IMG/VR virus record: IMGVR_UViG_3300045391_000912
Location: 1 to 64,000 of that record
DNA length: 64,000 bases
Direction: 5' to 3' (one strand)
DNA from: a virus
Made by a program: the position numbers and the translations under genes. Positions 29,535 to 50,646 of the stretch are shown here, in pieces (within the stretch, counting starts at the first letter, position 1; every line of letters begins with the position of its first letter). The notes under the pieces were generated by a model that did not search any database, was not told where the DNA came from, and was given only the letters and a program-made list of their open reading frames with translations.

Positions 29535-31631
29535 TTACTTGATCGGCGTGGCCTTGTCGCCCGGCAGTAGCAGCTGCGGAACCTGCGTGAAGGTCCAGTT
29601 CTTACCGTCGTCCGACGTGAACACCCAGTACATGTCGAACCGCTTGCCGTCCCAAGCCGTAGGTAGGCCGGGGCTGATCTTGCCGAAGAGCTTGCACGTG
29701 TTCACGATCGCCGTGTGCTCCAGGCAGACCATCGTGACATCGAGCCGCTGGGCCAACCACGGGCCGAGAGTCTTGTAGTCCTTCTCAGCGTCGTAGCGGG
29801 TGTTCATCGGGAGCCCGGCGGCCTGCTGGTACGGCTGGATCGTCTTAAGCGGCCTGTTCGAGGCTGTGGTGCCCTTGGAGGCGATGCAGCGGTCCGGCTT
29901 AGGTAGACCGGCCGGTTGCTTCCCCGCGAGCCACTGGGCCTTGAAAGCCTCCGCGCGCTGCCTCCCCTTGGCCGACAGCTCGTGCAGGGTGTCATCCTTC
30001 CCGTCAGCGTTGTCGTCCTTCTCGCCGTGCCTTAGCACGATGATCGTCCGCTTAGCCTTAGGAATTGTCTGCGGGATGGGCTGCGTGGGAGGCGGCTCGG
30101 ACACTAGGGAATCAGGCCCCTTACCTGGAGTTACATCCAGACCGATGGATCCGTACTTGCCGGTCACCACATTGTCTTCGTAGAACTTGATCCCGACGCT
30201 TAGGTCACCGGTCTCAACGATCTTGTCGGCCTCACCGGCGAAGGTGTTCCGCGTGATGTGCACGTTGTCGATGTCATCGAACTTCAAGCACTGGTAGCCG
30301 TACGTCTTGAAGTAGTTCCCGTCGACCAGCCAGTTCTTGGAATCGCCGGTACCGCCACCGCCGCCGTCCGTGCTGGCCCGGCCTTCCGCCATGACGCCCT
30401 GGTGCAGGTAGCCAGGATCCGACTTGGGCGGCCCGTTGATTCGGTTGCCCCGGATGATCACGTTGGAGCTAGGCAGCTTAGAAGGCGTATTCCAGGTCTG
30501 GATGCCGTCCGTATGGGAGCCGCCTGGATCGCCCTTGACGAGGTTGTCGATGTTGTTGTTAAGGATCTGCGTGCCATCGCCGAAGAAGCTGATGCCGTTG
30601 ATGTCGTCAGGATCCGACACCTCCGAGACATCGTTGCTGCGGATGACGTTGTTCTTGCCGATCGAGTAGATTCCCGCGTTACCGGCGCCCTTGACCCTGA
30701 AGTTCTGGACGGTCACGTTATCCGCGTTGATCGTGATCTTCCTGACCGTGTTGCCCTGGCCGTCGTAGACCTTACCGCTGGCCGAGGGGCCGAGGGTCAG
30801 CTCAACCGGCTGGGCGGGCGTGAAGAGCACCGCGTTAGGCCCGGAAGCCGTCGGGGTGCTGCCGACGCCTACCTTGGAGTCCACTGGCGACGGTACTGTC
30901 CCACCCGGAGGTACCTGGGCCTGAAACGTGACCCGACCGGGCTTAGCTCCGTGGGTGATCTCCAGGCCGTAGTACCTGGTGGATCCGGTGTTGTACGAGG
31001 TGACCGGGTCGGCGTTCGACTTGTTGGCCTGGGTGTAGGCGCCCGCCTTGAAGTAAGCCCCGGTGAGCTTAGATGCGTCCAGGGTGGCGACGAGTGTGCC
31101 GTTGAAGTAGGCCAGGCACTTACCGCCGCCCACCACGAACGCGAGGTCCACGGCGGTTCCGAGCACGTACTTGTCCGTGACCAGCTTGTAGTGCGTGTTG
31201 TCGCCCGAGGTCACCCAGAGGCTCGACCCCTCAAGCCGGAACACCGAGTAGTCGTCTGCGGCGTCGTGGATCTGGCCGCCGACGACGTGAGGCTTACCGG
31301 TCGGAAGGCTTGTCCAGGCGATCCGCTGGAGCATGGTGTGGTACTTGCCGTCGCTACCACTCCAGGCGGCCTTGTCGGCGCCGAGCATTTCCCGAAGCTC
31401 CGAGCGGGGGTAGCCGGAGCCGGACGTGGTGAGGCCGGTAACCGGGGCCAAGAACGCTACGTATGATCCGTTGGCATCTACGCCCTGTGTGAAGTAAGGC
31501 GCGTAGGTGTTCTTGACCAGGGCGTCCGCAAGCTTGGACCCGGCCACCTCTCCCGGACCCTTAGACCCATCCACGGAGATGGGCAGGGTGATCTTCCAGT
31601 TGGTGAAGTCGATAACTGGCGCGGCAGTCAT
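29535..31631 (-). CDS. three-module enzyme: PL7 (alginate-lyase-2-like) domain + right-handed beta-helix + C-terminal histidine phosphatase
   Basis: ATG 31631 behind GAAGGGG. PL7 motifs WKITLPI, YPRSELREM, GGQIHD and YFKAGAYTQ. Beta-helix repeats (NNIDNLV, HTDGIQTW). The RHGE motif (IIVLRHGEKDD) plus a later CLEH histidine. Confidence 0.75.
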   Translation of the reverse strand: MTAAPVIDFTNWKITLPISVDGSKGPGEVAGSKLADALVKNTYAPYFTQGVDANGSYVAFLAPVTGLTTSGSGYPRSELREMLGADKAAWSGSDGKYHTMLQRIAWTSLPTGKPHVVGGQIHDAADDYSVFRLEGSSLWVTSGDNTHYKLVTDKYVLGTAVDLAFVVGGGKCLAYFNGTLVATLDASKLTGAYFKAGAYTQANKSNADPVTSYNTGSTRYYGLEITHGAKPGRVTFQAQVPPGGTVPSPVDSKVGVGSTPTASGPNAVLFTPAQPVELTLGPSASGKVYDGQGNTVRKITINADNVTVQNFRVKGAGNAGIYSIGKNNVIRSNDVSEVSDPDDINGISFFGDGTQILNNNIDNLVKGDPGGSHTDGIQTWNTPSKLPSSNVIIRGNRINGPPKSDPGYLHQGVMAEGRASTDGGGGGTGDSKNWLVDGNYFKTYGYQCLKFDDIDNVHITRNTFAGEADKIVETGDLSVGIKFYEDNVVTGKYGSIGLDVTPGKGPDSLVSEPPPTQPIPQTIPKAKRTIIVLRHGEKDDNADGKDDTLHELSAKGRQRAEAFKAQWLAGKQPAGLPKPDRCIASKGTTASNRPLKTIQPYQQAAGLPMNTRYDAEKDYKTLGPWLAQRLDVTMVCLEHTAIVNTCKLFGKISPGLPTAWDGKRFDMYWVFTSDDGKNWTFTQVPQLLLPGDKATPIK

Positions 31632-31641
31632 GATGCCCCTT

Positions 31642-31800
31642 CTAGTACCAGTACCTACGGCCGCCGACCGGGTGTCCCACACCACCCAGGACGAGCAGAA
31701 CCAGACCGAGGACGATCAAGATCCAGCCGAGGGTGGCTACGAACGCCGGAACAGGCAGGAGGTAGCCGAGGATGAGCAGGAGAACTCCGAGAATAATCAT
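31642..31800 (-). CDS. 52-aa two-TM membrane protein (holin-like)
   Basis: Reads MIILGVLLLILGYLLPVPAFVATLGWILIVLGLVLLVLGGVGHPVGGRRYWY. Below the ORF-track cut-off. Confidence 0.5.
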   Translation of the reverse strand: MIILGVLLLILGYLLPVPAFVATLGWILIVLGLVLLVLGGVGHPVGGRRYWY

Positions 31801-36405: not shown

Positions 36406-36480
36406 CCGCCACGCCTGGAGTCGAACCAGGGACCTCCGGGGTTTCAATCCGGCGCTCTTACCAAACTGAGCTACGAAGCG
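36406..36480 (-). tRNA. tRNA-Phe (GAA)
   Basis: Acceptor CGCTTCG/CGTGGCG (one mismatch), T arm CCTGG-TTCGACT-CCAGG, anticodon loop TTGAAAC. Confidence 0.6.
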
Positions 36481-36485
36481 TTGAA

Positions 36486-36578
36486 AGGCGCAGACTCGGA
36501 AGGTGAGGACTTTCGAGTTGGACCCGAGCACACAGAGCAAGACTGCCACTAATGTTTCTCAAGGTTTTGTCTGCGCCT
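36486..36578 (-). ncRNA. 93-nt structured element closed by a 10-bp helix, not a cloverleaf (E3)
   Basis: AGGCGCAGAC / GUCUGCGCCU closes the element. Inner helix CUCGG/CCGAG. Sits 2 nt after tRNA-Trp and 5 nt before tRNA-Phe. No CCA. Confidence 0.35.
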
Positions 36579-36580
36579 AG

Positions 36581-36652
36581 CACGCACTCAAGGAATCGAA
36601 CCTTGTCATCGCGGAGTTGGAAGCCGCTGCCGTCCCATTGGGCTAAGTGCGT
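36581..36652 (-). tRNA. tRNA-Trp (CCA)
   Basis: Perfect acceptor ACGCACT/AGTGCGT, T arm CAAGG-TTCGATT-CCTTG, anticodon loop TTCCAAC. Confidence 0.7.
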
Positions 36653-36658
36653 AAGTTT

Positions 36659-36735
36659 TGGTGCGGCCTTTTACCGACATGCCGAGGTCGTATATCGCGT
36701 TAACGGCGGGTGCTCTTCCACTGAGCTACCGGGGT
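36659..36735 (-). pseudogene. degenerate tRNA: intact 5' half joined to an unrelated 3' part that ends in ACCA
   Basis: Reads ACCCCGG-TA-GCTC-AGTGGAA-GAGC-A-CCCGC-CGTTAAC..., but no matching T arm or 3' acceptor strand follows. Confidence 0.45.
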
Positions 36736-36756
36736 GTATGGGCGCCTTATAACACT

Positions 36757-36790
36757 CACCCGTGTGGGATTCGAACCCACGGCCTCCCGC
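36757..36790 (-). pseudogene. tRNA 3'-half fragment
   Basis: Reads GCGGG-AGGCC-GTGGG-TTCGAAT-CCCAC-ACGGGTG. It starts at the 3' strand of the anticodon stem and lies directly after tRNA-Val. Confidence 0.55.
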
Positions 36791-36794
36791 CTCG

Positions 36795-36866
36795 TACCCC
36801 CAGATGGATTCGAACCACCGGCCCGCTGTTTGTAGGACAGCCGCTCTCCCGCTGAGCTATAGGGGT
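36795..36866 (-). tRNA. tRNA-Val (TAC)
   Basis: Acceptor ACCCCTA/TGGGGGT, T arm GGTGG-TTCGAAT-CCATC, anticodon arm GCTGT-CCTACAA-ACAGC (C rather than U at position 33). Confidence 0.6.
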
Positions 36867-36911
36867 ATAAAAGTCCCGCTCTACCAGCCATTACGCCTCG
36901 AACGGGACTAG
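36867..36911 (-). pseudogene. scrambled tRNA remnant
   Basis: 7-bp stem AGTCCCG/CGGGACT. Contains a D-arm-like TGGTAGAGC and an anticodon-stem-like GGGACTTTTA fused to the start of tRNA-Val. Confidence 0.4.
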
Positions 36912-36984
36912 CTGGTCTGGCAGGGTTCGAACCTACACCTGACTCCTTAACAGGGAGCAGCTCTGCCAATTGAGCTACAGACCA
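36912..36984 (-). tRNA. tRNA-Asn (GTT)
   Basis: Perfect acceptor TGGTCTG/CAGACCA, T arm GTAGG-TTCGAAC-CCTGC, anticodon loop CTGTTAA. Confidence 0.7.
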
Positions 36985-37035
36985 AAGATCACTGTGGAGT
37001 TTTCACTGCTACACGCGGCGCGTAGGACCGCAAAG

Positions 37036-37109
37036 TCGGGATAGCACGACTCGAACGTGCGGCCTCCAGCTCCCAAAGCAGGCGCTCTAACCAACTGAGC
37101 TACATCCCG
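37036..37109 (-). tRNA. tRNA-Pro (TGG)
   Basis: Acceptor CGGGATG/TATCCCG, T arm GCACG-TTCGAGT-CGTGC, anticodon loop TTTGGGA. Confidence 0.65.
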
Positions 37110-38548: not shown

Positions 38549-38897
38549 GTGCCCGGCGTGTGGTGCTGGTGGCCTCGCCTAGAACTCGAAGCACCTCGGT
38601 CTGCATACGCTGCTGCTGTTCCTCCAGCTTTGTCTCATACCGAGATGCCCGCTCTTCAGCCGCTTTAACCCGATCTGTAGCCGAAGCTTCCGCGACCTTG
38701 ACCTGGTCCTTCAAGTTGCTGATCTGCTCATCCTTAGCCTTCATGGCCAGGTTGAACACCGCCCGAAGGGCCACCAAACACATGAACAAGAGTCCAACCA
38801 GTACACCAGCTTGTGTAAGGGGGCTCAACTGCTCAAGCGCGCCACTTTCCGCCGCCAGCCACACAGCGGGCACAGTGACTAGCAGCATCGTGATCAC
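38514..38897 (-). CDS. membrane protein with a coiled-coil tail (127 aa)
   Basis: ORF track. Two N-terminal TM helices. Confidence 0.65.
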   Translation of the reverse strand: MITMLLVTVPAVWLAAESGALEQLSPLTQAGVLVGLLFMCLVALRAVFNLAMKAKDEQISNLKDQVKVAEASATDRVKAAEERASRYETKLEEQQQRMQTEVLRVLGEATSTTRRALEITRGSHDDR

Positions 38898-39532
38898 ATC
38901 GGCTCCACAAGAATTTCACGCTGACTCCAGGTGTTGTCTCCACCCGAGTCTTTGTACTTAGCGGTGAAGGTCGTAGAGCCTGCGTTTAGACCCGTATAGA
39001 AAATGACCCTGCTGTAACAGGCGTAAGCCCCCGTGACCTTGGGGAAGAACGCCAGCGACTTGGAGTCGTCGGCCGCGATGGTGTTGGCCCCGGACACAGC
39101 GACACCCATCCGACCGCCGTCGTTGCTGTCCGCCTCGGACATGTTCGCGGTGATGGTGACCCTCGCCCGACCAGAAGGTTTGATCGTGACGGTCACGGAG
39201 GGGCCGACGGTGGCGCAGTCCACGTAAGCCGAGCCGTTGGTGCCCGGCTCCGCTGTGACGACACTGGCCCACTGCACCCCGGCGTAAGGATCCCCGGAAC
39301 CGCCCACCACAACCTCTGTGTCGGTGACCCGGAGGTCTACAACATCGTCCATCCGCAGCCCAGCCGGGGCGTAAGCCGGAACCACAGGTGTCGGGTCATC
39401 TCCGATGGTCACCTTGAGTGGGCTGGTGCTTACGACCTTGCCCCGACGGAAGGTGGGCTGTGGGATCTCCGAGACTTTGGGGGTCTTACCGGCGAGAGCA
39501 CGGCTTAGCTTGATGGTGTTGCCCGTAGCCAT
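38894..39532 (-). CDS. minor tail / structural protein (212 aa)
   Basis: ORF track. Assigned from its position after the large tail fibre gene. Confidence 0.6.
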   Translation of the reverse strand: MATGNTIKLSRALAGKTPKVSEIPQPTFRRGKVVSTSPLKVTIGDDPTPVVPAYAPAGLRMDDVVDLRVTDTEVVVGGSGDPYAGVQWASVVTAEPGTNGSAYVDCATVGPSVTVTIKPSGRARVTITANMSEADSNDGGRMGVAVSGANTIAADDSKSLAFFPKVTGAYACYSRVIFYTGLNAGSTTFTAKYKDSGGDNTWSQREILVEPM

Positions 39533-39544: not shown

Positions 39545-42500
39545 TTAGGTGCTGATCGTATCGGTGATGCGGACTTCCGTGCCTTCGTAACCCTTGTAGG
39601 TGGCCGTGATCGAGCTGCCGGTGTCGGTGAACTCCACGATGGCGTAAAGCTCGCTGACCACGGTGTCCGACTCGTGGGCGTTGTCGGGGTACTGCTGCTC
39701 GTAGCCCGCTCCACCGGCCTTGACCTTGGTCGTGTTGTGGAGTGGTGCACTCTGCCAAACCTTGTCGTAGCCGTACTGGTTCGAGCCGGTGGCCAGCGAG
39801 TGCGTGTCACCGTTGAGGTACAACACGGTGGCCGAGGAGGCGCTAAGGGCGCTCGCAAGCTCGTTCCGCTCGGTGTCGTAGCCCCGCCATTCGTCCTGTC
39901 CGGCCTCCTTGGGACCAGGGATCTGCCCGTCTCCGAAGACGACGATCATCGGCTCCGAAGCGGTGGACAGGATGTTCTTGAACCAAGCCTTCTGGGTGCT
40001 GCCCAGCATGGTCTTGGAGCTGTTGTCCGTGGCGGTAAGGCTGGACTTGAAGCTAAGCATGTCGAGCAGGACGAACCTGACGCGCCCGACCACCCATGTT
40101 CGGTAGATGCCCGTGGTCGGTAGCGTCGCGTTCTGCACACCCGGCCCGCTGGATCCCCACTTGGTGCGGTAGGCCGTGTTGAAGTTGTTGACGAACGTGG
40201 AGCCCTTCTCCACACCGGTCGCGTTGTTTGCGTAACCGAAGTCGTGGTCCGACACACCGACGATGATCGGGTTGGGTAGGGCTGCGATGAGCGCCGCGAA
40301 GTTGCTGTAGCCCGTCTGCCGGTTCCAGTCCGCGACCCAGTCAGGTGTGGCGCCGTCCTTGTACCAGAAGTCTCCGAGGATGGCGAAGTAGTCGGGCCCG
40401 GCGTTCTTGATGTGCGTAAGCGACCCGGCCGCCGAGGCGTTGGCGTTGATGCAGGCGCCGAAGGCCACCGTGAACGAGGTGGTGTCCCCGCCGCCGATGG
40501 TGTCCGAGTCGTAGACGGGATCCGGGCCGCCGGGGTAGTAGCTGCCGAGCTTCTTGAACTCAGCCGCCGCGTAGTCCGAGCTGGATTCCGAACCGGTGCT
40601 CTGCGGGTACGTACCGACCTTGAAGTAGCCGTTACCCGAGTGCGTTACCCCGGTGACGGAGGTAGTAGTGGCCCCCGCAAGCGTCGGATCAGTGCCCGCC
40701 TTGTGGATGATGTTCAGCGTGCTCGACCCGGTCACCATGATCCGGACCGTCAGCCAGTCCCCCTCGGTGTAATTACCAAGAGCGACGAAGGATCCGCCGT
40801 TCTTGTTGTAGCCGTACTTAAGCGTGCCGCTGACGACTTCCGTCTTGATCTGGAGCACGTCGTCGGAAGCGTCGTGGATCTGCATTCCCGAGCAGCGCTT
40901 GAGCGAGTTCGGCAACTTCGTCCAGCGGAGGCAGACCTGGACCCCGTAACCGCTGGTGAACGGCCACCCGGTAGTTCCGGTGCCGTTGGTGTCCATCTGC
41001 CGAAGCTCGGTACGCGGGTTGGAGCTTCCCGAGGTTGTAGGCGCGTCCAGGGAGATCCGCATCTGCACAGCGGTGTTGTCGCTGGTCATGCAGAACTCGG
41101 GCGACTGGGTGTAGCCACCACCGATCTGCGCCTGAGACTTCTCGATGATGGACGAACCACCCGAGATACCGGTCTGGACCTTGAAATGATTCAAGTTGCC
41201 ATTCGTGCCGATCTTCAGGCACTCACCGGGCGTGGAGTAGGTCCGTGGGATCGTTCCACCCGAACCGCCGCCTGTGTCCCCGTCCAGGCCACCGACACCG
41301 CCGCCTGTGGGTTGCGACTGGTCGAGCTTCTGTCGTCGCCCAGCGTAAGGAACGTCCTGGTCGACCCCGAAGTTGATCTGGAACGAGTCCAGGAGGTAGT
41401 TGGCGTTGAGCCCGGCCGCCTGTCGGTCGACGGTGTAGATGTCGCCCTCGACCAAGGCCGGGTTCTGGACCGCGCTGATCTCTACGGTCTCTCCGGCGCC
41501 CTTGAGCTTGAGCAGGTAGCCCTGCGCCATGGTCAGAGCATCGCCCGTGGAGGTTACGAGCTTGGAGACGAACCGCTTGACCCGCTTACCGCCTGTGCCG
41601 AGGTAGTAGGTGGGCGAGCGTGGGTCGTTGTCGGCCGCCGAGGCGCTTACCGGGACGATCGGGGTTCCGTCGGGGTTGGTGGCGCTGGACTCGCCCGACA
41701 CGACGATGTAGTTGAAGCTCTCCGACCGAGTCAGCTTGCGCATGACCCTGGTCATGACCGGCCGCTGCTTGTCCGAGAAGGTGAAGACCGACGGCTGGAT
41801 CGAAGGGTCCGGGAGCGGCTGAAGGACGTAGATCCCCCGCCAGTCCATGAACAGTTCCATGCCGCAGAAGGCCGCGCACTGTTGAACGTCCGCTAGCGGG
41901 TTGTTCTGCGCGTTAGCCCCGAAGGTAAGCGTGGCCGGAGCGACCATCTGCGTCGAGGCGAAGTCGAACTGGGCCGAGGGGTCGCGGTCCAGGATGACTT
42001 GCTTGATGACATCGCCCATGTTGGTGCCGGACGGGAAGGTCCGTACCGATTCCCAGGCGTTCTCCTGGAGCCGGAGGCTTAGATCCTGGCCCTCAAGCTC
42101 GATCTGGACGCCGTCAGGCCCGTCCGTGATGGTTGTGTCCGTGATCAGGAAGACCCCGGCCTGCACCATCTCGTCGTAGCTCTTGTCGGTGTCGATGTTG
42201 ATGTTGAGCTTGTCGACAACCGGCGATTCAGCCGTTCCGGACGCCTTCCTCAGCAGGATCCGGTAGTTAAGGGCCTTAGCGACGCTCGTACGCGGCACCA
42301 GGTTCGGGATCGACTCGCCGTTGGAGGCGTCTTCCCAGGTCGCCCCGTTGTTCACCGAGGTCTGCACCGTCACCGACGAGCCCGGCGGAAGCGACGTCAC
42401 CTCCCACGAGATCGTGGACCAGATGACCGGCTGCCCGCTTGGGATCGGCTTAGGGTCTCCCAGCCATGTGGCGGTGGCCGACAGGCGGTGCGGTACGACG

Positions 42501-43726
42501 AGACCCGACGGCGCCAACGAGCTGCTTAGCAGGTACGTGACGCTCTTAGGCTTCAGGACCCCGGTCGGCGTGATCGAACCCTTGCCGGTCGCGTTCTTGA
42601 TGACCGTCTTGGAGATCGAGCCCGAAGGGGCGCTGGATCCGGCCGCTGGGCGGTTGACGATGTGCGCGGGCGGCGCCGAGCCGGTTGGTGTGGTGGATCC
42701 GGTGAACTTCGCCTTGGTGATGGCCTTAGCCACCGTGCCCGATGGTGTGGACGAGCCCTTGACGCTGTTCTTGACCGCGCTGAACGGCTTGATCGTGCCG
42801 CTGGATGTGGTCGAACCGGTCCGCGTCGGCAGCAACACGACCTTGGTAGGTGTGACGGTGCCGCTAGGCGTGCTGGATCCGGTCCGCTTGTCCTTGGTAA
42901 CGGCCTTGGTGATCGCACCCGTAGGTGTGCTGGAGCCTAGCTGCGTGTTCTTGACCGAGGTCTTAGCCGCGATCGTCGCACCGGGCGTTGTGGAGCCTGT
43001 GCGGGCGCTCTTTTGAACTTGCTTGCCTGCGATGGAGCCTGCGGGCGTGCTGGAACCGGCCGTGTTCTGAACGGACTGGTTTTTAGCAAAGATTTCGGCG
43101 GTTACCCAGTTGTTGGCGGGCGTGCCTGTGCTGGAAACGCTGAAAGTGGCACTACCACCAGCGGAACCAAGGGTCTTGTAACCCACGATTCCATTTGTGC
43201 CGTTGCTGGTGTCGTGATTGCTGAAGTTAGTGGTACCCGTAGCTCCAAGGGTGCCGCCGTTGTTGTCTTCCGCGACGACGACACCGAGCGAGCCTGTACG
43301 CCCGATCGTGAAGCCGGTTGTAGTGAACGAAGTCGAGTTGTTGCTGCCATCGGTGTGGCCACCGGTCTGCGTGGCCGTGTCGGCACCTGTGAGCACTAGC
43401 AGCTTAAGCCCGACGCCGGAGCTGCTGGCGCCGCCGACCGTCGTGCTTACGGTCAGTCCCGTACGTCCGTGCGCTCCTGGCAGCTTGGCGACCCAGATAG
43501 CGCAGGCGCCCTTCTTGCCTGCTACGGAGTTAATGAACTCCAACTGGGTCCAGATAAGGGCTGTTCCGTTGTTACTGATGGACAGTGTTGTGCCTGATTG
43601 CGCGGTCGAGCTGAAGGCGCACGCAACCAGTACAACGTCGTCGGGAGGTGTGAAACTGGCGGTAGTCGCCGTAAAAAAGAGATTGGTGACTAGCGCCGGA
43701 GAGGACGCATCTACGGCAATGGCCAT
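39545..43726 (-). CDS. large tail fibre / minor tail protein with a PL7-like lyase module and a C-terminal PhoD-like phosphoesterase
   Basis: 1393 aa. About nine 20-aa GSSTPSG repeats. PL7-like TELRQM, MQIHD and YFKVGTYPQS. PhoD-like FAILGDFWY, VSDHDFGYANN, RFVLLDMLSFKS, DEWRGYDTERNEL and YLNGDTHS. Confidence 0.8.
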   Translation of the reverse strand: MAIAVDASSPALVTNLFFTATTASFTPPDDVVLVACAFSSTAQSGTTLSISNNGTALIWTQLEFINSVAGKKGACAIWVAKLPGAHGRTGLTVSTTVGGASSSGVGLKLLVLTGADTATQTGGHTDGSNNSTSFTTTGFTIGRTGSLGVVVAEDNNGGTLGATGTTNFSNHDTSNGTNGIVGYKTLGSAGGSATFSVSSTGTPANNWVTAEIFAKNQSVQNTAGSSTPAGSIAGKQVQKSARTGSTTPGATIAAKTSVKNTQLGSSTPTGAITKAVTKDKRTGSSTPSGTVTPTKVVLLPTRTGSTTSSGTIKPFSAVKNSVKGSSTPSGTVAKAITKAKFTGSTTPTGSAPPAHIVNRPAAGSSAPSGSISKTVIKNATGKGSITPTGVLKPKSVTYLLSSSLAPSGLVVPHRLSATATWLGDPKPIPSGQPVIWSTISWEVTSLPPGSSVTVQTSVNNGATWEDASNGESIPNLVPRTSVAKALNYRILLRKASGTAESPVVDKLNINIDTDKSYDEMVQAGVFLITDTTITDGPDGVQIELEGQDLSLRLQENAWESVRTFPSGTNMGDVIKQVILDRDPSAQFDFASTQMVAPATLTFGANAQNNPLADVQQCAAFCGMELFMDWRGIYVLQPLPDPSIQPSVFTFSDKQRPVMTRVMRKLTRSESFNYIVVSGESSATNPDGTPIVPVSASAADNDPRSPTYYLGTGGKRVKRFVSKLVTSTGDALTMAQGYLLKLKGAGETVEISAVQNPALVEGDIYTVDRQAAGLNANYLLDSFQINFGVDQDVPYAGRRQKLDQSQPTGGGVGGLDGDTGGGSGGTIPRTYSTPGECLKIGTNGNLNHFKVQTGISGGSSIIEKSQAQIGGGYTQSPEFCMTSDNTAVQMRISLDAPTTSGSSNPRTELRQMDTNGTGTTGWPFTSGYGVQVCLRWTKLPNSLKRCSGMQIHDASDDVLQIKTEVVSGTLKYGYNKNGGSFVALGNYTEGDWLTVRIMVTGSSTLNIIHKAGTDPTLAGATTTSVTGVTHSGNGYFKVGTYPQSTGSESSSDYAAAEFKKLGSYYPGGPDPVYDSDTIGGGDTTSFTVAFGACINANASAAGSLTHIKNAGPDYFAILGDFWYKDGATPDWVADWNRQTGYSNFAALIAALPNPIIVGVSDHDFGYANNATGVEKGSTFVNNFNTAYRTKWGSSGPGVQNATLPTTGIYRTWVVGRVRFVLLDMLSFKSSLTATDNSSKTMLGSTQKAWFKNILSTASEPMIVVFGDGQIPGPKEAGQDEWRGYDTERNELASALSASSATVLYLNGDTHSLATGSNQYGYDKVWQSAPLHNTTKVKAGGAGYEQQYPDNAHESDTVVSELYAIVEFTDTGSSITATYKGYEGTEVRITDTIST
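42530..43057 (-). repeat. about 9 tandem ~60-nt (20-aa) coding repeats in the tail fibre
   Basis: Units of the form GSSTPSGT(I/V)xKxVxKxxxT. Confidence 0.8.
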
Positions 43727-43780: not shown

Positions 43781-44524
43781 TTAGCTGCCAGCGGGGATCG
43801 TCAGCTCGTAAGGGACCTGAAGCGAGTCGGACGCCGCTAGACCTACCGATGTGAACACCGAACGGTCCAGGAGCACACCGCCGCCGGTAGCCGCCTGGGA
43901 GAAGACGCCATGCTCGGTGATCGAGGCGGAAGCGTCCACGGTGATCGTGCCGACGGTCCGGTAGATGTTGGCGGAAGCGCCCTCACCCTGCGTACCCGTG
44001 GCCCGAGTCGAGTCCGGGTTGTACTGAGTGGTCAGCTCAGTCTGTAGCGCGGTGTCGGAGCTGGCCTCAGCGTTCGTGCCAGTGCCGATGCCGTGATACT
44101 TGAAGTTCTCCAGCTCCGTGAGGTTCTGGAAGGCATCGACCATGTACCCGACACCGGCTGTAGTGACTACGCGTAGTGACGCTAGGCCGTAGTCCGTGAT
44201 GTCCCCGGTCTGCCCGTCGATCTTCCGCAGCCACACAGCGCCGTAGAAGGTCGGAAGTTTAAGGACACGAGCCGCAAGCACGGTCCGAGCGCCTCGCCAC
44301 AGGTTCTTGGCGTTCTTAGCACGCCATACGTTGACCTCGCGGCTAAGACCCCGCTGTGGGAGCCCGTGGCGGATGATCTCCCGGAACTCCGGGTCTCCGC
44401 ACTTCACGATGTCGTCGCCAGGCCGGAAAGCCAGAATGTCGGCGACGGATAGACCGTTTCCGGTACCGCGAACGAAGGTGGCCCCCCGCCCGTCAGTTAC
44501 GGTTTGGATCGCTGCTGCGTTCAC
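43781..44524 (-). CDS. minor tail / structural protein (247 aa)
   Basis: ORF-track frame 43781..44653 trimmed to GTG 44524, which overlaps the upstream stop (GTGA). Confidence 0.6.
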   Translation of the reverse strand: MNAAAIQTVTDGRGATFVRGTGNGLSVADILAFRPGDDIVKCGDPEFREIIRHGLPQRGLSREVNVWRAKNAKNLWRGARTVLAARVLKLPTFYGAVWLRKIDGQTGDITDYGLASLRVVTTAGVGYMVDAFQNLTELENFKYHGIGTGTNAEASSDTALQTELTTQYNPDSTRATGTQGEGASANIYRTVGTITVDASASITEHGVFSQAATGGGVLLDRSVFTSVGLAASDSLQVPYELTIPAGS

Positions 44525-44742
44525 TGGGAATCTGCCTCTCGGACGATGGCGGTCCGCGAACCGCAGTTTGTGCACTTGAATACGACTCGCCAGCCGGTGA
44601 TCTTCTGCTGTCGGCCGGGCAGGGTCAGGTCCGGTTCCGTGATCGCGTCCCACGCATCATCTGCGGGTTCCCCGATCCTGTTGTCGAAGTTGCACTTAGC
44701 GCAAACGACGCTGCGAGTGCCCTCTTCTGCTGGAACTGTCAC
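44521..44742 (-). CDS. small zinc-ribbon protein (CAKC...CTNC)
   Basis: ORF track. Confidence 0.55.
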   Translation of the reverse strand: MTVPAEEGTRSVVCAKCNFDNRIGEPADDAWDAITEPDLTLPGRQQKITGWRVVFKCTNCGSRTAIVREADSQ

Positions 44743-44786: not shown

Positions 44787-45161
44787 TTAAGCGATGGAGA
44801 TAGAACCATCCTCGTTAACCGCGATATCCGTAAGCGTCCCTTCGTTCCACTGGTCCGCCGTGTCCACCGCGATGACGATTTGCTCCGTACCGACGTGCTC
44901 AACACCCGTTTCCGGGATCAGCAAAGTCCCCGAAGTCGGGTTGAAAAGGTCCGCCGCACCCTGAGGGGTGTACTTACCTTCCTCATCGATGATCGTGAAC
45001 GTGCACCGTCGCCGAATGGACTGTGCGCTGTCCACCGTGACCGTGCCCGACACCGGGACTAGCTCATCAACGATCACGCCGTTGACCTGGACCTTAAGCT
45101 TCCGCTTAGCCTTGTGAGGCCCTGAAACCACATCCAGGAACTCCGGCGTCACCGGGATCAT
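44787..45161 (-). CDS. minor tail protein (124 aa)
   Basis: ORF track. ATGA-type overlap with the upstream gene. Confidence 0.6.
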   Translation of the reverse strand: MIPVTPEFLDVVSGPHKAKRKLKVQVNGVIVDELVPVSGTVTVDSAQSIRRRCTFTIIDEEGKYTPQGAADLFNPTSGTLLIPETGVEHVGTEQIVIAVDTADQWNEGTLTDIAVNEDGSISIA

Positions 45162-47053
45162 TGGGTCACCGCCGCGAGAGGTACGGAGGGGTCACGTGGT
45201 GGCTTCACCTCGATGTAGCCCCACGACAGGATCCGGAAGTCAACACCTGTGTCCCCGTCGGTGTGCCACGACCACTTAGCCTCGCCCTTAAGCCGCACCC
45301 AGTACTGCTCCCCGTTCGGGTACTGGAGAAGCAGAGTGTGCCGTTGGGCCCGGATTGCCTTCCATTTCTTCCACGATTCGTCATCGGGGTCGATGAACAG
45401 AAGCTTGCTGTCTCCGGTAATGCCCTGGAGCGGACCGTCCACCACGATCGGATAAGCCTTGTCTCCGTTGGCCACGAGCGGAATGTGGATGCCCTGCGCA
45501 CCCTCTTCGCTGGGATCGTCGTCCATCCAGCCGATGGGTTGGTTCAACGAAGGTGCGTACGGATCCTTGAGCGCGAACTCGTGATACGTAGGCACGGCCT
45601 TGGCGATGTTGGACTCGTCCGAAGCCACCTTGATGAGCCCGACGGTGGCGTACGCAAGCGCCTTGTACCAGCGGTTCTGGTTAAGCGGCGCCAGGTAGTC
45701 CACACGCACGGCGGAACCGTCGATAGCGCTCGCTGGGACCTGCCATCCACCCCAGATGAGCTGCCACGAGTTGCCCGAGTCGTCTGAGCTGTAGATGTTG
45801 TAGGTCTCCACAGCCGGAGCGCCTGGTGTGGCGGTCGGGATCAGGTCCAACTGCACCGAGTTGAGCGCCGGGTTCGGTGTGGCCATCAAGATCGGCACCG
45901 GTGGCCCTTGCACGGCGATGGTGAAGTTGTAGGCGTCCCACTGGCTAAGCAGCTCCGGCCCATCCCACTGCTGCTTAGCGCGCGAGTAGACAACATAGTC
46001 ACCGTTAGGCAGGTCGCGGTTGCAGAGCCACTGGTTGCTGGTCCCGAGGATCCAGTTCAGGTCTCCAGGGCTCGCGGCGTACGGCGGTGTGGTGTCCACG
46101 TTGAACGAAGGTGCGGCGGCCTGCGCGGCGGTGAACACGCGGAACGCCACGGCCGCCTGTGGGTCGCTCTCGGTGTCGGTGTAGCTGATCGTGAAGATCG
46201 GCCGGGTCGTTGTGGTGATGACCGCCCGCGTCAGGGTCACAGAAACGCCGCTTGCCGAGGCTGTAGTGGCCGCAGACAGCGTTACGTTGGTCGCGCTGTT
46301 CACCGTAAGGATGGTGGTGTTCGCGGGGATCCCGGCGCCTGTGACGGTCGCGCCTACGTCCTTGGAGGTGAAGGCGGCGGTCGCGGAGGTCAGCGTCGTG
46401 TTGGTCGCGGTGACACCGTCAGCGAAAACCCGCGTCTCGGTGGGCCCCAGGATGGTCAAGACCGGGGCGTGGTTGAACTCCACGTCGATGTAGAACTCCG
46501 ACAGCTTGCTTAGCTGCGCGCTAAGGTCCGAGCGGCCGATGCGCCACGTCTGGGAGTTGACCAGGTCCCGCGTCCAGTTCGAGCCCGCCGGGGATCCGGT
46601 GTAGGTCTTGATCGTGACGGTCTGCCACGTAGCCGACGCTCCACCGGGAGGTGTGGGACACGGGAAGCTGAACAGGTGCCGGAAGAACTCGCTCAGGAAG
46701 TCTCCCAAGCCCTGAAGCGGGTCGGTGATGACCGTTTCCACGATCTCGCCCGTGAACCTGATGATATCGGTCAAGAATGAGCTGCCGCCGGACGGTGCGA
46801 CCTGGAGAACCTTAGCCCTTAGGGTCACCGCCTTGATGGCGCAGTCGTCCGGGATGTCCGAACTGGTCAGGTTGGCGATGTCGAACGTGGCGAAGTCGCC
46901 CGGTAGCTGAGACCGGGATGTGGTCGACAGGAACGTGAGGTCCGAGTCGTCGCTAAGGATCTGTGCGACCGTGGCCCCGGAGCTTGGGGTCAGAGCCCAG
47001 TTCCCCTTGGAGGATGGCGCTGTGGTGTCAGGCCGCCGTGTCACGATGCCCAT
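45158..47053 (-). CDS. minor tail protein (631 aa)
   Basis: ORF track. Immediately follows the tape measure gene. Confidence 0.75.
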   Translation of the reverse strand: MGIVTRRPDTTAPSSKGNWALTPSSGATVAQILSDDSDLTFLSTTSRSQLPGDFATFDIANLTSSDIPDDCAIKAVTLRAKVLQVAPSGGSSFLTDIIRFTGEIVETVITDPLQGLGDFLSEFFRHLFSFPCPTPPGGASATWQTVTIKTYTGSPAGSNWTRDLVNSQTWRIGRSDLSAQLSKLSEFYIDVEFNHAPVLTILGPTETRVFADGVTATNTTLTSATAAFTSKDVGATVTGAGIPANTTILTVNSATNVTLSAATTASASGVSVTLTRAVITTTTRPIFTISYTDTESDPQAAVAFRVFTAAQAAAPSFNVDTTPPYAASPGDLNWILGTSNQWLCNRDLPNGDYVVYSRAKQQWDGPELLSQWDAYNFTIAVQGPPVPILMATPNPALNSVQLDLIPTATPGAPAVETYNIYSSDDSGNSWQLIWGGWQVPASAIDGSAVRVDYLAPLNQNRWYKALAYATVGLIKVASDESNIAKAVPTYHEFALKDPYAPSLNQPIGWMDDDPSEEGAQGIHIPLVANGDKAYPIVVDGPLQGITGDSKLLFIDPDDESWKKWKAIRAQRHTLLLQYPNGEQYWVRLKGEAKWSWHTDGDTGVDFRILSWGYIEVKPPRDPSVPLAAVTQ

Positions 47054-50000
47054 CAGGCGCTCCTCTGTCCCGCAAGAAGTTCCTTCTCCCAGACACCGAC
47101 CACGGTCTCCACCGAGGACTCGATCGCCTTACCATCCAAGATCGTCTGGTGGGTGAAGTTCGCTACGGGAGGCTTAGCCGTGTCCGCATTGATGATCGCA
47201 TTAACCTGGGTGCTCAGCGCGCTCAAGCTATCCGACAGGGCGGCCTGTAGCTGAAGCACGTCGAACCCGGTGGATGCGTCAACCTGGCTCTGCGCTGCGG
47301 CGATAGCGGCCTGAACCGCCTTACGAGCCGCGTCCTCCACCGTGTGGATCCTGTCCAGGATTCCGACCGCGATACCTTCAGAGATCGGCTTACCCGTGCC
47401 GTCCCGGAACAGACGCGAAGGCGAGTTGACGTTAGCGGCCTGGTCGGCGGCCTTCTTAGCATCCGCCACGACCTTACGGACCGCGTCCTGCACGATGCTG
47501 GAGCCCTCGTTGATACCGGCCGCTAGACCCTGCATCAGCGCCAGACCAGTGGACTTCAGAATGTTGACGTCGATGGCCGCCTTCATGTCTTGCGTGACCT
47601 TCTTGACCGCATCGACAGCGGCCTTACCCCCATCGGTCACGGCCTTGGCGAAGTTGGTCATCATCGTGGTGACCGCCTCAACCACAGGCCCCGCCCCTTG
47701 GGTCACGGCGGCGGCGATGTCGGCCATGCCCTGATCGCAAGCGGCCTTAGCCTGCACGAACCCGGCGGTGAAGGCAGCGGTTACCTGGCCGAAGCCTGCT
47801 GTAACCGCAGCGGCGATGGACGCCATACCCGGAGCCACGTTGGCCGCTAGCGCGACGAAGCCAGCCTGGAAGACGGTTCCCAGAGCCAAGAAGGCTTGCC
47901 CGATGGCCGGGCTGATGACCGTGGCGAAGCCTGTAGTGAACGCAAGGCCCATCGCGGCAAGGCCGGGCGTGATCGCGGTGGCGTTCAGGGAAATGAACCC
48001 GGCCTGGAAGACGGTCGCCAAGCCGAGGAACGCGGTACCGATGGCAGGCCCGATCACAGTGGCGAAGCCGGTCTGGAACGCGAGCCCCATTGCCGCCAAG
48101 CCGGGTGTGATCGCCGTTGTGGTCAGCGAGATGAACCCAGCCTGGAAGACCGGCGCCAGCGCCAGGAAGGCTGTACCGATCGCCGGAGCGATGACCGTGG
48201 CGAAGCCGGTGGTGAAGGCAAGTCCTAGTGCCGCAAGCCCCGGTGTGACCGCTGTAGTCGTGAGCCCGATGAAGCCCGCTTGGAAGACGGTGTTCAGCCC
48301 GAGGAACGCGGTCCCGATGGCCGTGCTGATGTTGGTCCCGAAGCCTGTAGTGATCGCTGTGCCGATGGCTGCGAGCCCCGTGGTCACCGGCCCTGTGGCT
48401 AGCGCCTGGAACGCGGTGGAGACCAGCGGCCCTAGGTTCGTGAAGCCGGTAGCGAAAGCTGTACCCAGGCCAGGGATCGCGGCATCGACGGCGGCGGCCA
48501 TGTTCTGCACACCGGTCTGCGCGTTCTGCTGGAGCGGTACGAAGCCTTGCTGTGTTGTGGTCCCCAGGGTCGCCATAGCGTCCGCGAACGACAGGTTAGC
48601 GGCGTTACCGAAGCCTTCACCGACCCGCTGCCCGACCGGCGGAATGTCGCCGACCAGCGCCCTAAGCGGGTTAAGGACGGCCTCAGGTACCTTGCCGCTC
48701 TCCTGCGCCGCACCAGTGACCAGGCTGCGGAACCCTTCCACACCCTTGGTGGCCAGGTCGGTGACCGCGCCCTTAACCTGTGGGATGAGCCGCTGGATCG
48801 GAGGCAGCAACGCGGGCCCGACGGCCTCACCGACGAGCTTGGAGTTAGACGCTACCGGAGGCGCCGCACCCTTGATGCTCTCCGGGATCTTGTTCATTTC
48901 GGTGCGGACTTCGGACTCGATCGGCCGGATGTTCGGCACGATGCCCTTGTGGATACCCCTGGCCAGTTCAGACGCGGCCTGCTCAGCCTTGGTCCCCACG
49001 TCCTGGATGTCCTTGGGTACCAGCCCCAGGGAGTTCTGCACCTTGAGCCTGAACCGCGCGAACGCCTCACCGGCCGCAAGCAGCTTGTCGTTGATCGCCC
49101 CAGCGAATTCAATCGCGTTAGCCGCCGCCTCCGTGAAGCCGATCGCTAGGTTGCCCAGCAATTGGATGAAGCCCGGAAGCGCGGCGGCAATCTTCTGGAT
49201 CGACTGCTGGAAGGCGGGGCTGTTCAACTGCGTCCCTAGGCCCTCGAACGCGGTTGTGATTCCGTCAACCGTGCTCTGCGGGATGCCGTCTAGCGCACTA
49301 CCAATGCCGTGAAGCGCGTCACCGACCGCACCGCCGATGCGGGTCCAGTCAAACTTGTTGAAGAAACTACCGAGACCGTCGATGGCTGCCTGAGCGCCGG
49401 GGGCAGCCGCCGAGAAGGTATCGATACCGTTGTTGACCAGGTCGGCAAAAGCCTTCTCCAGCGAGGACACCACACCGCTTAGCCCGCTGAAGGCGGATTC
49501 CAAGTTGGTGTTCTTGCTGATGTCCTCCAACGCCTTGCCGAGACCGTTTACGGTAGTCACCAACAGGTCCAGCGCGCCCTTGCTACCCGCCAGTGTGAGG
49601 AAGCCGCGCTCCAGCGGAACAAGATCGATCTTGTTAACCGCTTCCGCAACGTTGTTGAAGACGGTCTCGATCTGCTTAAGCCCGCCGCCTTGCGTGATGA
49701 AGTTAGCGGTCTGTCGTGCTAGCCCGACGAGCGAGTTCGCCACAGTTTGGATGGACGGCGTCAGAGCTGTGAGGGTGCCCTTGAGCTGATTGAATACCGG
49801 CGTAAGCCCCGTGGTGAACGTTGCGGAGATCGCCGTCTTCAGCTTGTTGAACTCGGGGGCAAGTACCTGTGCGGCTTTCTTGATGCCGGCCATGCCCAAC
49901 GCAATGGTGGCCAGCGGCGCCCCGATAAGTCCGATCGCTGCCGGAACCGCCGCAATGGCTGTTGATACCGCACCCCAGGCCGCTGTTACCGCCGCGCCCG

Positions 50001-50646
50001 CCTCCGCGAATACAAGTGCTGTAGCACCAGCCCTGAGTAGGCCCTGTACCAGCGTGGAGACGGCCCCGATCACGCCCGCGCCCGCACCGGAAGTGAACTC
50101 ACTCGCGGAACCTGTGATGGTCGAGAAGGCGCTAGCGCCAGAGGCCTTGACCTGGTCGAAAGCAGCAACGATGTCCGAGAGGATCGAGCCGAACGCCAGC
50201 CCGGCCAAACCCTTACTCGTGTCGAACTCAACGGGAACGTGGATCGGACGCCCCGCTAGCGCCTTTTCCGCCGCCAGCGCCCCCTTGTCCACGTCGAAGT
50301 TGACGGGGACCTTAACGGGCTTAGCCGCTAGGGCCTTCTCCGCGTCGAGCTTGCCCTTGTCGACCTCAAAGTTGACCGGGACCGTGATCGGGTCCTTGGC
50401 AGCGGCTTCCTGAGCAGCCAGGGCGGCCTTGTCCACGTCGAAATTGACCGTGACGGTGATCGACTCTTTGATCTCGTCAAGCTTGGCGCGAAGCTCTTCC
50501 CGATTGACGTCCCAGTCGATACTGACTTGGATTTTCTCGTCGGGAAGGCTCTTAAGTTCAGCCTCGACGGCCGATTTGAAGCCACTGGTGTCCGGAACAA
50601 CGCGAACGCTGACCCGAGCGATAGTCCGCCCTCCGGGACCACTCAC
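47053..50646 (-). CDS. tape measure protein
   Basis: 1197 aa, Ala/Gly-rich, with internal 46-aa repeats. Positioned after the G/T chaperone genes. Confidence 0.9.
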   Translation of the reverse strand: MSGPGGRTIARVSVRVVPDTSGFKSAVEAELKSLPDEKIQVSIDWDVNREELRAKLDEIKESITVTVNFDVDKAALAAQEAAAKDPITVPVNFEVDKGKLDAEKALAAKPVKVPVNFDVDKGALAAEKALAGRPIHVPVEFDTSKGLAGLAFGSILSDIVAAFDQVKASGASAFSTITGSASEFTSGAGAGVIGAVSTLVQGLLRAGATALVFAEAGAAVTAAWGAVSTAIAAVPAAIGLIGAPLATIALGMAGIKKAAQVLAPEFNKLKTAISATFTTGLTPVFNQLKGTLTALTPSIQTVANSLVGLARQTANFITQGGGLKQIETVFNNVAEAVNKIDLVPLERGFLTLAGSKGALDLLVTTVNGLGKALEDISKNTNLESAFSGLSGVVSSLEKAFADLVNNGIDTFSAAAPGAQAAIDGLGSFFNKFDWTRIGGAVGDALHGIGSALDGIPQSTVDGITTAFEGLGTQLNSPAFQQSIQKIAAALPGFIQLLGNLAIGFTEAAANAIEFAGAINDKLLAAGEAFARFRLKVQNSLGLVPKDIQDVGTKAEQAASELARGIHKGIVPNIRPIESEVRTEMNKIPESIKGAAPPVASNSKLVGEAVGPALLPPIQRLIPQVKGAVTDLATKGVEGFRSLVTGAAQESGKVPEAVLNPLRALVGDIPPVGQRVGEGFGNAANLSFADAMATLGTTTQQGFVPLQQNAQTGVQNMAAAVDAAIPGLGTAFATGFTNLGPLVSTAFQALATGPVTTGLAAIGTAITTGFGTNISTAIGTAFLGLNTVFQAGFIGLTTTAVTPGLAALGLAFTTGFATVIAPAIGTAFLALAPVFQAGFISLTTTAITPGLAAMGLAFQTGFATVIGPAIGTAFLGLATVFQAGFISLNATAITPGLAAMGLAFTTGFATVISPAIGQAFLALGTVFQAGFVALAANVAPGMASIAAAVTAGFGQVTAAFTAGFVQAKAACDQGMADIAAAVTQGAGPVVEAVTTMMTNFAKAVTDGGKAAVDAVKKVTQDMKAAIDVNILKSTGLALMQGLAAGINEGSSIVQDAVRKVVADAKKAADQAANVNSPSRLFRDGTGKPISEGIAVGILDRIHTVEDAARKAVQAAIAAAQSQVDASTGFDVLQLQAALSDSLSALSTQVNAIINADTAKPPVANFTHQTILDGKAIESSVETVVGVWEKELLAGQRSA
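47800..48400 (-). repeat. 4-5 tandem 138-nt (46-aa) coding repeats in the tape measure gene
   Basis: Units of the form TPGLAAMGLAFTTGFATVIxPAIGTAFLxLxxVFQAGFIxLxxTAI. CCTGGAAGAC recurs every about 138 nt. Confidence 0.8.

Follow-up and report, generated by a model that had tools for sequence, protein, structure and literature searches.

What would a phage attack, and when, with a tail protein that ends in a polysaccharide-lyase module followed by a phosphodiesterase-like module? The question is raised by a minus-strand gene at 39545..43726 of a 64,000-nucleotide stretch (hereafter the window; positions 1 to 64,000 of IMG/VR virus record IMGVR_UViG_3300045391_000912), which makes up most of the genome of a lytic-looking, actinophage-like siphovirus. 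The gene, identified from the list of open reading frames (ORFs) and its ATG start, from its domain matches and from its place in the tail block, encodes a 1393-amino-acid (aa) protein that runs, from N- to C-terminus, through an N-terminal domain, a repeat spacer, a hub region, a Gly-rich linker, a PL7 module and a PhoD-like module. An initial annotation, made from the sequence alone, had described it as a tail fibre that independently combines a PL7-like module with a PhoD-like phosphodiesterase, and the PL7 and PhoD motifs that it quoted are all present in the protein. Judged by its modelled fold, the protein is best read as a tail-tip protein of the Tal type. We consider it probable, although well short of certain, that this tail-tip protein locally cleaves an anionic wall glycopolymer with uronic-acid and phosphodiester linkages, such as a teichuronic/teichoic hybrid; both this substrate and the host are inferred.

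The PL7 module retains the catalytic residues of alginate-type lyases

The PL7 (Alginate_lyase2) polysaccharide-lyase module occupies aa 838-1062 (40541..41215, minus strand) and was recognised by Pfam, by its match to 1UAI and by its motifs. PF08787 aligns to aa 844-1060 over profile positions 2-221 of 225 with E=8.4e-23 and 81.8 bits (cutoff 29.7), and the module also aligns with the polyguluronate lyase 1UAI (E=1.8e-12) and with A1-II'. The catalytic Arg, Gln, His and Tyr are intact within R905-x-E-x-R909, Q949-I-H951 and Y1034-FKVGTY-P-Q1042 (TELRQM begins at aa 906, MQIHD at aa 948 and YFKVGTYPQS at aa 1034), which bears out the first assignment of this module, and the RxELR, QIH and YFKxGxYxQ motifs with these four residues are kept in every lineage of the family. 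The module thus shares with the characterised PL7 lyases (Corynebacterium sp. ALY-1 1UAI; A1-II' 2CWS) a full-length PF08787 domain and the three motifs, but differs from them in being fused to a phage hub and a phosphodiesterase, and its substrate is probably not alginate. A tblastn search with the module detected no homologue in 50,697 deposited phage genomes. Two linkers flank it: a Gly-rich one at aa 801-837 (41216..41326, minus strand; 32% Gly), seen from its composition and from low pLDDT at the end of the hub model, and a short Gly/Asp-rich one at aa 1063-1081 (40484..40540, minus strand), seen from its composition, that leads to the PhoD-like module.

The C-terminal module is a PhoD-like metallophosphoesterase of a variant subfamily

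The C-terminal module (aa 1082-1393; 39548..40483, minus strand) was assigned as a PhoD-like metallophosphoesterase from Pfam PhoD, a profile match to 2YEQ, an AlphaFold (AF2) model searched with Foldseek, and its metal ligands. Pfam PhoD PF09423 matches aa 1203-1322 with E=1.5e-11 and 44.4 bits (cutoff 27), covering only positions 140-277 of the 343 in the profile, and a PHROGs phage 'hydrolase' family covers aa 1082-1388. A single-sequence phmmer search of the domain against the PDB gave nothing relevant; a profile of eight family members matched Bacillus subtilis PhoD (2YEQ residues 115-388) at E=1.4e-11, reached a purple acid phosphatase (PAP) at E=0.4 only, and aligned Cys-180 of 2YEQ with the invariant C1092. 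The AF2 model, built from a 40-sequence alignment, has a pLDDT of 87.3 and a pTM of 0.90; its best Foldseek match is 2yeq_A (E=1.7e-15), followed by PAPs, Rv0805 and acid sphingomyelinase-type enzymes, and the matches also include SMPDL3A. The profile searches and model that the initial annotation had called for therefore support the PhoD-like domain that it proposed. Along the domain, the recognisable motifs begin at aa 1089 (FGACINA, which holds the Cys ligand), 1114 (FAILGDFWY), 1158 (VSDHDFGYANN), 1217 (RFVLLDMLSFKS), 1241 (LGSTQKAWF), 1278 (DEWRGYDTERNEL) and 1303 (YLNGDTHS).

The initial annotation had made the metal ligands of the PhoD fold the decisive check, and this check went largely in its favour, with one real departure. 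According to the structural study of PhoD (PMC4223295), C180, D207, D265, D266, N271, N272 and D436 coordinate metals and their substitution abolishes or strongly reduces activity, with D265A abolishing it; its text names N272 as a ligand of CaB and describes the Fe3+ site as tyrosinate-ligated and differing from that of PAPs by the Cys only. Residues were mapped through the alignment, with PhoD numbers taken as PDB chain index + 56. This revealed that C180 corresponds to C1092, D207 to D1119, a Tyr (Y210, numbered from the alignment) to Y1122, D266 to D1160, D436 to D1307 and a His (H438, numbered from the alignment) to H1309, that N271/N272 probably correspond to N1167/N1168 with a shift of one residue, and that D265 is replaced by S1159; H1161 and D1278 complete the set of ligand equivalents. 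Counting this probable Asn pair, eight of the nine PhoD metal-ligand positions are therefore kept, the exception being the D265 equivalent. We take the Tyr and His to be iron ligands from the known PAP ligand set and the equivalence of the PhoD and PAP sites, and the assignment of residues other than N272 to CaA or CaB, including that of D265 to CaB, is likewise our own.

On this assignment the Fe3+ ligand set (C1092, D1119, Y1122 and H1309) is invariant in 11 relatives and near-invariant in the 208 related copies of the domain recovered by exhaustive search, and the equivalents of the CaA ligands (D1119, D1160 and D1307) are kept, with Asn in place of D1307 in P0010-P0012. N1167-N1168 is invariant, and its distance from the DH motif is greater by one residue than that of the Asn pair in 2YEQ. 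The alignment by hidden Markov model (HMM) sets G1164 opposite N272; the wider homologues share the spacing of the tail protein. Across all 11 close relatives the ligand columns C/D/Y/-/D/H/N/N/D/D/H are conserved, and nearly so in the wider homologues. By its invariant columns the PhoD-like domain is the most conserved part of the tail protein, which fits the expectation for a working enzyme.

Every member of the tail family has Ser in place of D265, as do 148 of the 208 related copies, whereas 37 of 39 more distant homologues have Asp there. The dominant signature among the 208 copies is CDYSDHNNDDH. We rejected the idea that the Ser marks decay, since it is a trait of a large PhoD-like clade, and also the idea that it is specific to copies linked to PL7: all 31 PL7-linked copies have it, as do 117 of the 177 copies without PL7. 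From these alignments we regard the domain as a variant subfamily of PhoD rather than canonical PhoD. With the B. subtilis enzyme (2YEQ, an Fe3+/2Ca2+ phosphodiesterase) it has in common the fold, the Cys/Asp/Tyr/His iron site, the equivalents of D207, D266 and D436, and probably the Asn pair; it differs in overall sequence (~18% identity), in the Ser and the displaced Asn pair, in lacking a Tat signal, the PhoD_N domain and the C-terminal cap helix, and in forming the C-terminal part of a phage tail protein where PhoD is a secreted enzyme.

The same residue bears on the proposal that one or both modules are catalytically dead and lectin-like, the PL7 jelly-roll binding a uronic-acid polymer and the PhoD-like domain binding phosphate. 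Jelly-roll folds are common as receptor-binding domains, the Asp lost here is the one whose replacement by Ala abolished the activity of B. subtilis PhoD, and some tandem PhoD-like proteins, P0097 and P0101 among them, have clearly degenerate second copies. However, the four PL7 catalytic residues and 10 of 11 scored PhoD columns have been kept across lineages that are 30-45% identical, the Ser of the 148 copies resembles a functional variant, and the degenerate copies look unlike the tail-protein domain. We therefore rate loss of catalysis as quite improbable. As an observation on the clade, P0097, P0101 and P0200 are long relatives with tandem PhoD-like domains, in which several metal ligands are missing from one copy or more; signatures such as SDHSDRESDNH, CDGSDVNSDDH and CDLSDCANNDH show the form that a degenerate copy takes within it.

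A predicted hub would place both modules at the tail tip

The region in front of the two enzymes was assigned as a gp27/Mu gp44-like hub (aa 430-800, a small beta-sandwich followed by the hub; 41327..42439, minus strand) from phrog_1887 and from an AF2 model searched with Foldseek. Residues 502-800 match the PHROGs 'tail protein' family phrog_1887 at E=1e-42, and homologues of aa 430-830 bear Phage-tail_3 PF13550 or DUF5047. The AF2 model is of moderate confidence (pLDDT 66, pTM 0.35) and its fold matches have large root-mean-square deviations; its top Foldseek matches are nevertheless hub proteins, with probability 1.00: Mu gp44, the 43-kDa tail protein of MuSo2 (3cdd), VgrG, Listeria prophage gp18, NF5 Tal and the lambda gpJ tip at E=1e-12 to 1e-8, and also T4 gp27 and T5 pb3. 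In view of this hub fold, a side fibre was dropped as a reading, and the 'tail fibre' of the initial annotation, taken in the strict sense, gives way to a hub or Tal-type tail-tip protein.

The likeness to siphophage Tal and hub proteins (NF5 Tal 9M7N, T5 pb3 and the lambda gpJ tip, with the Mu gp44/T4 gp27 fold) extends beyond the hub-like fold to the location of the gene downstream of that for the tape measure and to a C-terminal enzymatic extension that follows a Gly-rich linker. The extension itself differs, the enzymes of Tal being peptidoglycan hydrolases and those of the tail-tip protein a polysaccharide lyase and a metallophosphoesterase. The hub also starts near aa 430, not at the N-terminus as in Tal proteins, and is preceded by a domain and repeats that together span ~430 aa.

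The first of these N-terminal elements, aa 1-217 (43076..43726, minus strand), belongs to no known family and had no match in Pfam or the PDB. Over 270 aa it shares 54% identity with the N-terminal part of the PhoD-PL7 protein of contig L005, it is absent from the close relatives P0003-P0007, and it sits downstream of the PhoD domain in P0013; by this distribution, it behaves as a mobile module. The second, aa 218-410 (42497..43075, minus strand), was defined by a repeat scan and shuffling, and consists of nine Thr/Ser/Pro-rich units of ~20 aa with the pattern GS(S/T)TP(S/T)G, whose Gly residues lie at aa 224, 244, 264, 283, 304, 324, 343, 363 and 383 (spacing 19-21 aa), and a degenerate tenth unit near aa 403. 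A strict pattern, G[ST][STIA][TSA]P[STG][GA], fits seven units and occurred on average 0.014 times in composition-preserving shuffles of aa 221-415, none of 5000 reaching seven; the estimate of about nine 20-aa repeats given at the outset was thus accurate. Tandem Repeats Finder detected no tandem repeat in the DNA that encodes them. The repeats are visible at the protein level only, which argues that the units are old and diverged. They form a ~190-aa spacer here, are conserved in relatives of the tail protein, and still stand in front of the hub in P0003-P0007, where the first domain is missing. NCBIfam gave no match for the tail protein or its neighbours. Two independent contigs from metagenomes, P0001 and the fragment P0002, encode an identical protein, which is therefore not an assembly chimera.

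Two side observations concern phrog_1887. The 124-aa ORF at 44787-45161 (minus strand) matches positions 285-371 of this 670-position family, and aa 502-800 of the tail protein (41327-42220, minus strand) match its positions 365-656. From these matches, the phrog_1887 protein, which is single in phages such as VWB, here seems to be split around a 290-aa gene.

PL7 and PhoD-like modules have been paired repeatedly

A word-indexed search returned 11 further proteins with both Pfam domains. An exhaustive phmmer search with aa 835-1393 against 1.84 billion representatives gave 2173 matches at E<=1e-3, 111 of them at E<=1e-30, and mapping our own module HMMs onto the returned proteins placed both modules in 31 representatives. 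Their order is PL7 before PhoD in 16 and the reverse in 15; 14 carry the hub and 17 lack it, and the linker between the modules measures 17-35 aa in 25. PL7 sequences are 45-72% identical within lineages and ~30-35% identical between them, and at least three lineages have entered the pair: that of the tail protein with P0073 and P0078, that of P0008, P0009 and P0075, and that of P0010 and P0084. Free PL7 proteins, namely a 716-aa protein of the window and a 439-aa protein in L003, make up a fourth grouping. Descent of the two module orders from one recently flipped cassette was rejected: PL7 identity between the order classes is ~30-35%, and PhoD identity between hub-bearing proteins of opposite order is 52-64%. 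Because the pairing is repeated and modular, it argues for functional coupling of the two activities, and the 31 proteins, with PL7 modules from divergent lineages, show that it is no accident.

Relatives lie in phage contigs, two of them IMG/VR UViGs. In L005, the PhoD-PL7 protein is 54%, 44% and 29% identical to the tail protein in its N-terminal, PhoD and PL7 domains, respectively, while the tail module around it, in which a 1385-aa Sipho_Gp37-like protein is encoded separately, is otherwise unrelated. The L005 case shows that the modules are exchanged between otherwise unrelated tail modules. Capsid and tail-terminator genes flank the gene for a PL7-PhoD protein in L008 (8001-12167; N-terminal PL7), and the gene for a PKD-PhoD protein in L009 has Mtd_N-type fibre genes around it. 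The locations of the L008 gene and of the gene for Microbacterium phage Pioneer3 gp38 (L001, 7765-9717; no PL7) are hints that heads or necks, too, may carry the PhoD-like enzyme.

The pairing also bears on whether the two modules need act on the same polymer. The PhoD-like module might instead act on lipids at the membrane, either phospholipid head groups or the anchors of lipoteichoic acid or lipoglycan, and so assist the tail tip in opening the membrane, with PL7 clearing an outer polysaccharide. For this speak the fold matches, which include acid sphingomyelinase and SMPDL3A, the position of the module at the extreme C-terminus of the hub protein, the part expected to reach deepest, and Streptomyces chromofuscus phospholipase D, a member of the PhoD family that has the same Cys ligand to Fe3+ and acts on phospholipids (PMC4223295). 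Yet repeated pairing with PL7 in either order, through a linker of ~20 aa, points to one polymer rather than to layers that are separated by tens of nanometres. In addition, PL7 and not PhoD is the terminal module of five relatives that contain the hub, and members of this PhoD-like clade are also found in proteins whose genes lie close to those of the capsid. A lipid substrate therefore strikes us as improbable, and a single wall polymer attacked by both modules remains our preferred reading.

Comparison with phosphodiesterases of other phages

Depolymerases and tail-associated lysins are well known on virions; this enzyme pair and the variant PhoD active site are undescribed on characterised phages. 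Among 50,697 deposited phages none has a protein covering >=80% of the tail protein and the fused architecture was not found, and nothing relevant on PhoD or PL7 in phage tails turned up in the literature searched. In the deposited phages the PhoD-like clade occurs only as stand-alone proteins of ~650 aa, annotated as phosphoesterase, hydrolase or purple acid phosphatase, whose genes lie between capsid and connector genes in Microbacterium phages and among tRNA genes in Streptomyces BE-cluster phages. These proteins (Microbacterium Pioneer3 gp38 and A3Wally gp238, Streptomyces Tomas gp123, and phrog_13624) are 30-35% identical to the tail-tip domain and are its best viral structural matches (TMq 0.71-0.82), and the S-D-H signature is found in 650-aa representatives such as P0114. 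Unlike the tail-tip protein they carry PhoD_N, which its PhoD-like domain lacks, and are fused to neither hub nor PL7. A 2026 genome announcement states that the function of stand-alone PAP/PhoD-like phage genes is unknown (PMC13560708).

Phosphodiesterases on virions are known in Firmicutes phages in the form of the GDPD fold (PMC10194240). The GDPD (PF03009) tail proteins of enterococcal and staphylococcal phages have been proposed to cut teichoic acid at entry (PMC10194240), but the GDPD TIM-barrel is distinct from the PhoD/PAP sandwich and their hosts belong to a different phylum, making the likeness one of analogy at most; PF03009 gave no match in the tail protein at a Pfam threshold of E<=1. 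The initial annotation had called a virion-borne PhoD-like enzyme unusual, which is correct among characterised phages but not for metagenomes, where it is not rare for a structural region of a phage to include a PhoD-like domain. It is conceivable, and we offer it tentatively, that the S-D-H clade is a widespread class of virion-borne enzyme in actinophages and that, with PL7, it forms a two-enzyme cutter for hybrid teichuronic/teichoic polymers.

Genome context, host and a companion enzyme

The tail-tip gene lies in the tail gene block. Upstream on the same strand lie genes for the large terminase, portal, scaffold, major capsid protein, connectors, major tail protein and the 1197-aa tape measure protein (47053..50646, minus strand; phrog_305, E=5.5e-69). 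Between the tape measure and tail-tip genes stand three tail genes, also on the minus strand, for proteins of 631 aa (45158-47053), 124 aa (44787-45161) and 290 aa (43781-44653), in an order that is the same in L003 and L007. The next gene downstream encodes a minor tail protein of 212 aa (38894..39532, minus strand; phrog_7565, E=1.5e-26), a possible receptor-binding candidate that is 45% identical to the product of the gene following the tail-protein homologue in L007; the synteny with that contig runs 631↔575, 124↔125, 290↔243, 1393↔1095 and 212↔226 aa. As a side observation, the C-terminal ~100 aa (~301-406) of the major capsid protein (54395-55654, minus strand) match the major-tail-protein families phrog_10909 and phrog_117, as does the C-terminus (aa ~193-290) of the major tail protein (51751-52647, minus strand), which suggests that head and tail have a decoration domain, probably Ig-like, in common.

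ARAGORN found an array of 23 tRNA genes for 19 amino acids (34215-37109, minus strand), in which Gln, Glu, Lys, Leu and Arg are each represented twice; Rfam confirmed 21 of the genes. The array separates the tail genes from the lysis block and accounts for a 2.9-kb stretch without long ORFs. Beyond it come a gene for a GH19-type endolysin and then that for the 716-aa PL7 protein. The other arm encodes a primase-helicase-polymerase fusion, namely a 1615-aa ORF (2396-7243, minus strand) with a primase/helicase-like part (aa 11-806) and a family-A-type DNA polymerase (aa 1012-1611), together with a helicase, an exonuclease, an RNA ligase, ThyX and a methyltransferase. The ORFs tested showed no integrase. 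When 20 kb of the window were compared by Megablast with the 50,697 deposited phages, no nucleotide-level relative emerged. Identity of the portal to those of Gordonia and Mycobacterium phages does not exceed 45%, and since all of its matches are from actinobacteriophages, the host is probably an actinobacterium.

The 716-aa protein (29535..31685, minus strand) has a PL7 module at aa 25-245, a right-handed beta-helix at aa 319-486 and a histidine-phosphatase-like domain at aa 548-716. Its PL7 module matches PF08787 at E=1.8e-31 and repeats the motifs of the tail-tip module as RSELR, QIHD and YFKAGAYTQ, in agreement with the initial annotation, and is orthologous (46% identity) to the free 439-aa PL7 protein of L003, a contig from a related phage. 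Between them, the PL7 modules of the tail-tip and 716-aa proteins share only 34% identity over 95 aa, too little for recent duplicates, so that 'independently combined' is a reasonable description of them. The beta-helix match is sub-threshold (E=5e-4); beta-helices also occur in many tailspikes, and the protein, which the initial annotation called soluble, may be either a free enzyme or a virion spike. The C-terminal ~170 aa begin with IIVLRHGEKDD, which holds an RHG motif, and score 18.2 bits against His_Phos_1 (PF00300), under the cutoff of 21.7. The only relative of this last domain in the phage database, a 37%-identical 170-aa ORF of Ralstonia phage YO102_1, reaches 25.6 bits (E=1.1e-5) and has RHGEK and a later His in common with it. 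A profile of the domain returned only spurious DARPin matches from the PDB, and IMG/VR relatives of the protein match its PL7 part only. From these sequence matches the histidine-phosphatase assignment is plausible but not secure, and the superfamily comprises phosphomonoesterases and mutases, not diesterases. The idea that two unrelated phosphoesterase folds are each paired with PL7 in this phage thus holds for the PhoD-like domain, while its second half is weakly supported. The gene for the 716-aa protein follows the lysis genes, and its product probably acts on the polymer that the tail-tip protein attacks or on a related one.

This companion is relevant to the suggestion that the tail-tip enzymes do not serve entry but are cleaved off at the Gly-rich linker or released at lysis, to aid progeny release or, as an auxiliary metabolic function, to scavenge phosphate. 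PhoD is a phosphate-starvation enzyme, Gly-rich linkers are sites of proteolysis in some Tal proteins, and free-standing homologues lie among the non-structural genes of the Streptomyces BE-cluster phages. Against this, 14 representatives have the modules as an in-frame fusion with a structural hub, the gene lies in the tail block, and a separate enzyme, the 716-aa protein, already adjoins the lysis genes; we regard a role outside entry as very unlikely.

A proposed model for entry through wall glycopolymers

On our preferred reading, in which both modules serve entry by opening a wall glycopolymer, the hub would occupy the end of the tail tube and, by analogy with known hubs, would be trimeric, so that on adsorption three lyase and three phosphodiesterase modules would be presented to the cell surface. 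The lyase would cut 4-linked uronic-acid bonds by beta-elimination, and the PhoD-like module would hydrolyse phosphodiesters either within a poly(polyol/sugar-phosphate) chain or in the unit linking it to peptidoglycan. Local removal of the anionic glycopolymer would then let the tail tip reach the peptidoglycan and the membrane. Such polymers have precedents: from Streptomyces a hybrid was recently described in which a GalNAc-α(1→4)-ManNAc3NAcA teichuronic chain is carried on ribitol-phosphate teichoic acid, and in Micrococcus teichuronic acid is bound to MurNAc by a phosphodiester (bioRxiv 10.1101/2025.04.24.650519). PMC4223295 further records the proposal that PhoD releases phosphate from teichoic acid, and that its iron is loaded in the cytoplasm before Tat export, which makes such an enzyme compatible with assembly into virions inside the cell.

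Several points weigh against this model. The confidence of the hub model is only moderate and an extension of ~430 aa before the hub is atypical for Tal proteins, while presence in the virion and retention there of the C-terminal modules are predictions. The substrate specificity of the PL7 module cannot be read from its sequence, and replacement of D265, the residue whose loss abolished PhoD activity, by Ser means that the third metal site, and hence the chemistry, may differ. As for the chemistry of the host wall, similarities of the portal and endolysin include phages of Gordonia, Mycobacterium and Corynebacterium, hosts that lack classical teichoic acids, and a search for prophage relatives in one genome per species across 185,579 species gave no confirmed match.

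On a rival reading, the modules degrade loose extracellular matrix or capsule instead of a receptor anchored in the wall, during penetration of a biofilm or capsule, the lyase acting on acidic exopolysaccharide (EPS) and the phosphodiesterase on extracellular DNA or phosphorylated EPS. The Mycolata hosts suggested by some of the portal and endolysin matches make acidic EPS, PL7 enzymes are best known for alginate-type exopolysaccharides and PhoD-type enzymes hydrolyse diverse diesters. Among virion depolymerases, those directed at capsule or EPS are the commonest known class (PMC5380687). Such capsule depolymerases are usually mounted on side spikes and not on a central hub, as here. The data do not separate capsule from wall polymer, and we treat this reading, which we think unlikely, if less so than the other rivals, as a variant of the proposed cleavage of wall glycopolymer rather than a true alternative.

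How phages get through the thick, polymer-rich walls of actinobacteria is little understood, and for actinobacteriophages hardly any receptor or activity against the wall has been defined. The pairing of a uronate lyase with a PhoD-type enzyme points, as the initial annotation had already inferred, to a receptor or barrier that needs both kinds of cleavage, namely anionic polymers that contain both uronic-acid and phosphodiester bonds. If the tentative reading of the S-D-H clade is correct, this would be the first metallophosphoesterase-type receptor-destroying enzyme on a phage. The large PhoD subfamily to which it belongs, with Ser in place of the metal-coordinating D265, raises the question of how its metal site is built and what chemistry it performs, and the enzymes, if active, would be useful for dissecting and typing actinobacterial wall glycopolymers. 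The proposal also offers a testable function for the PAP/PhoD-like genes of Microbacterium and Streptomyces phages, and the tentative reading of the clade, if true, would explain the 'purple acid phosphatase-like' genes of actinobacteriophages.

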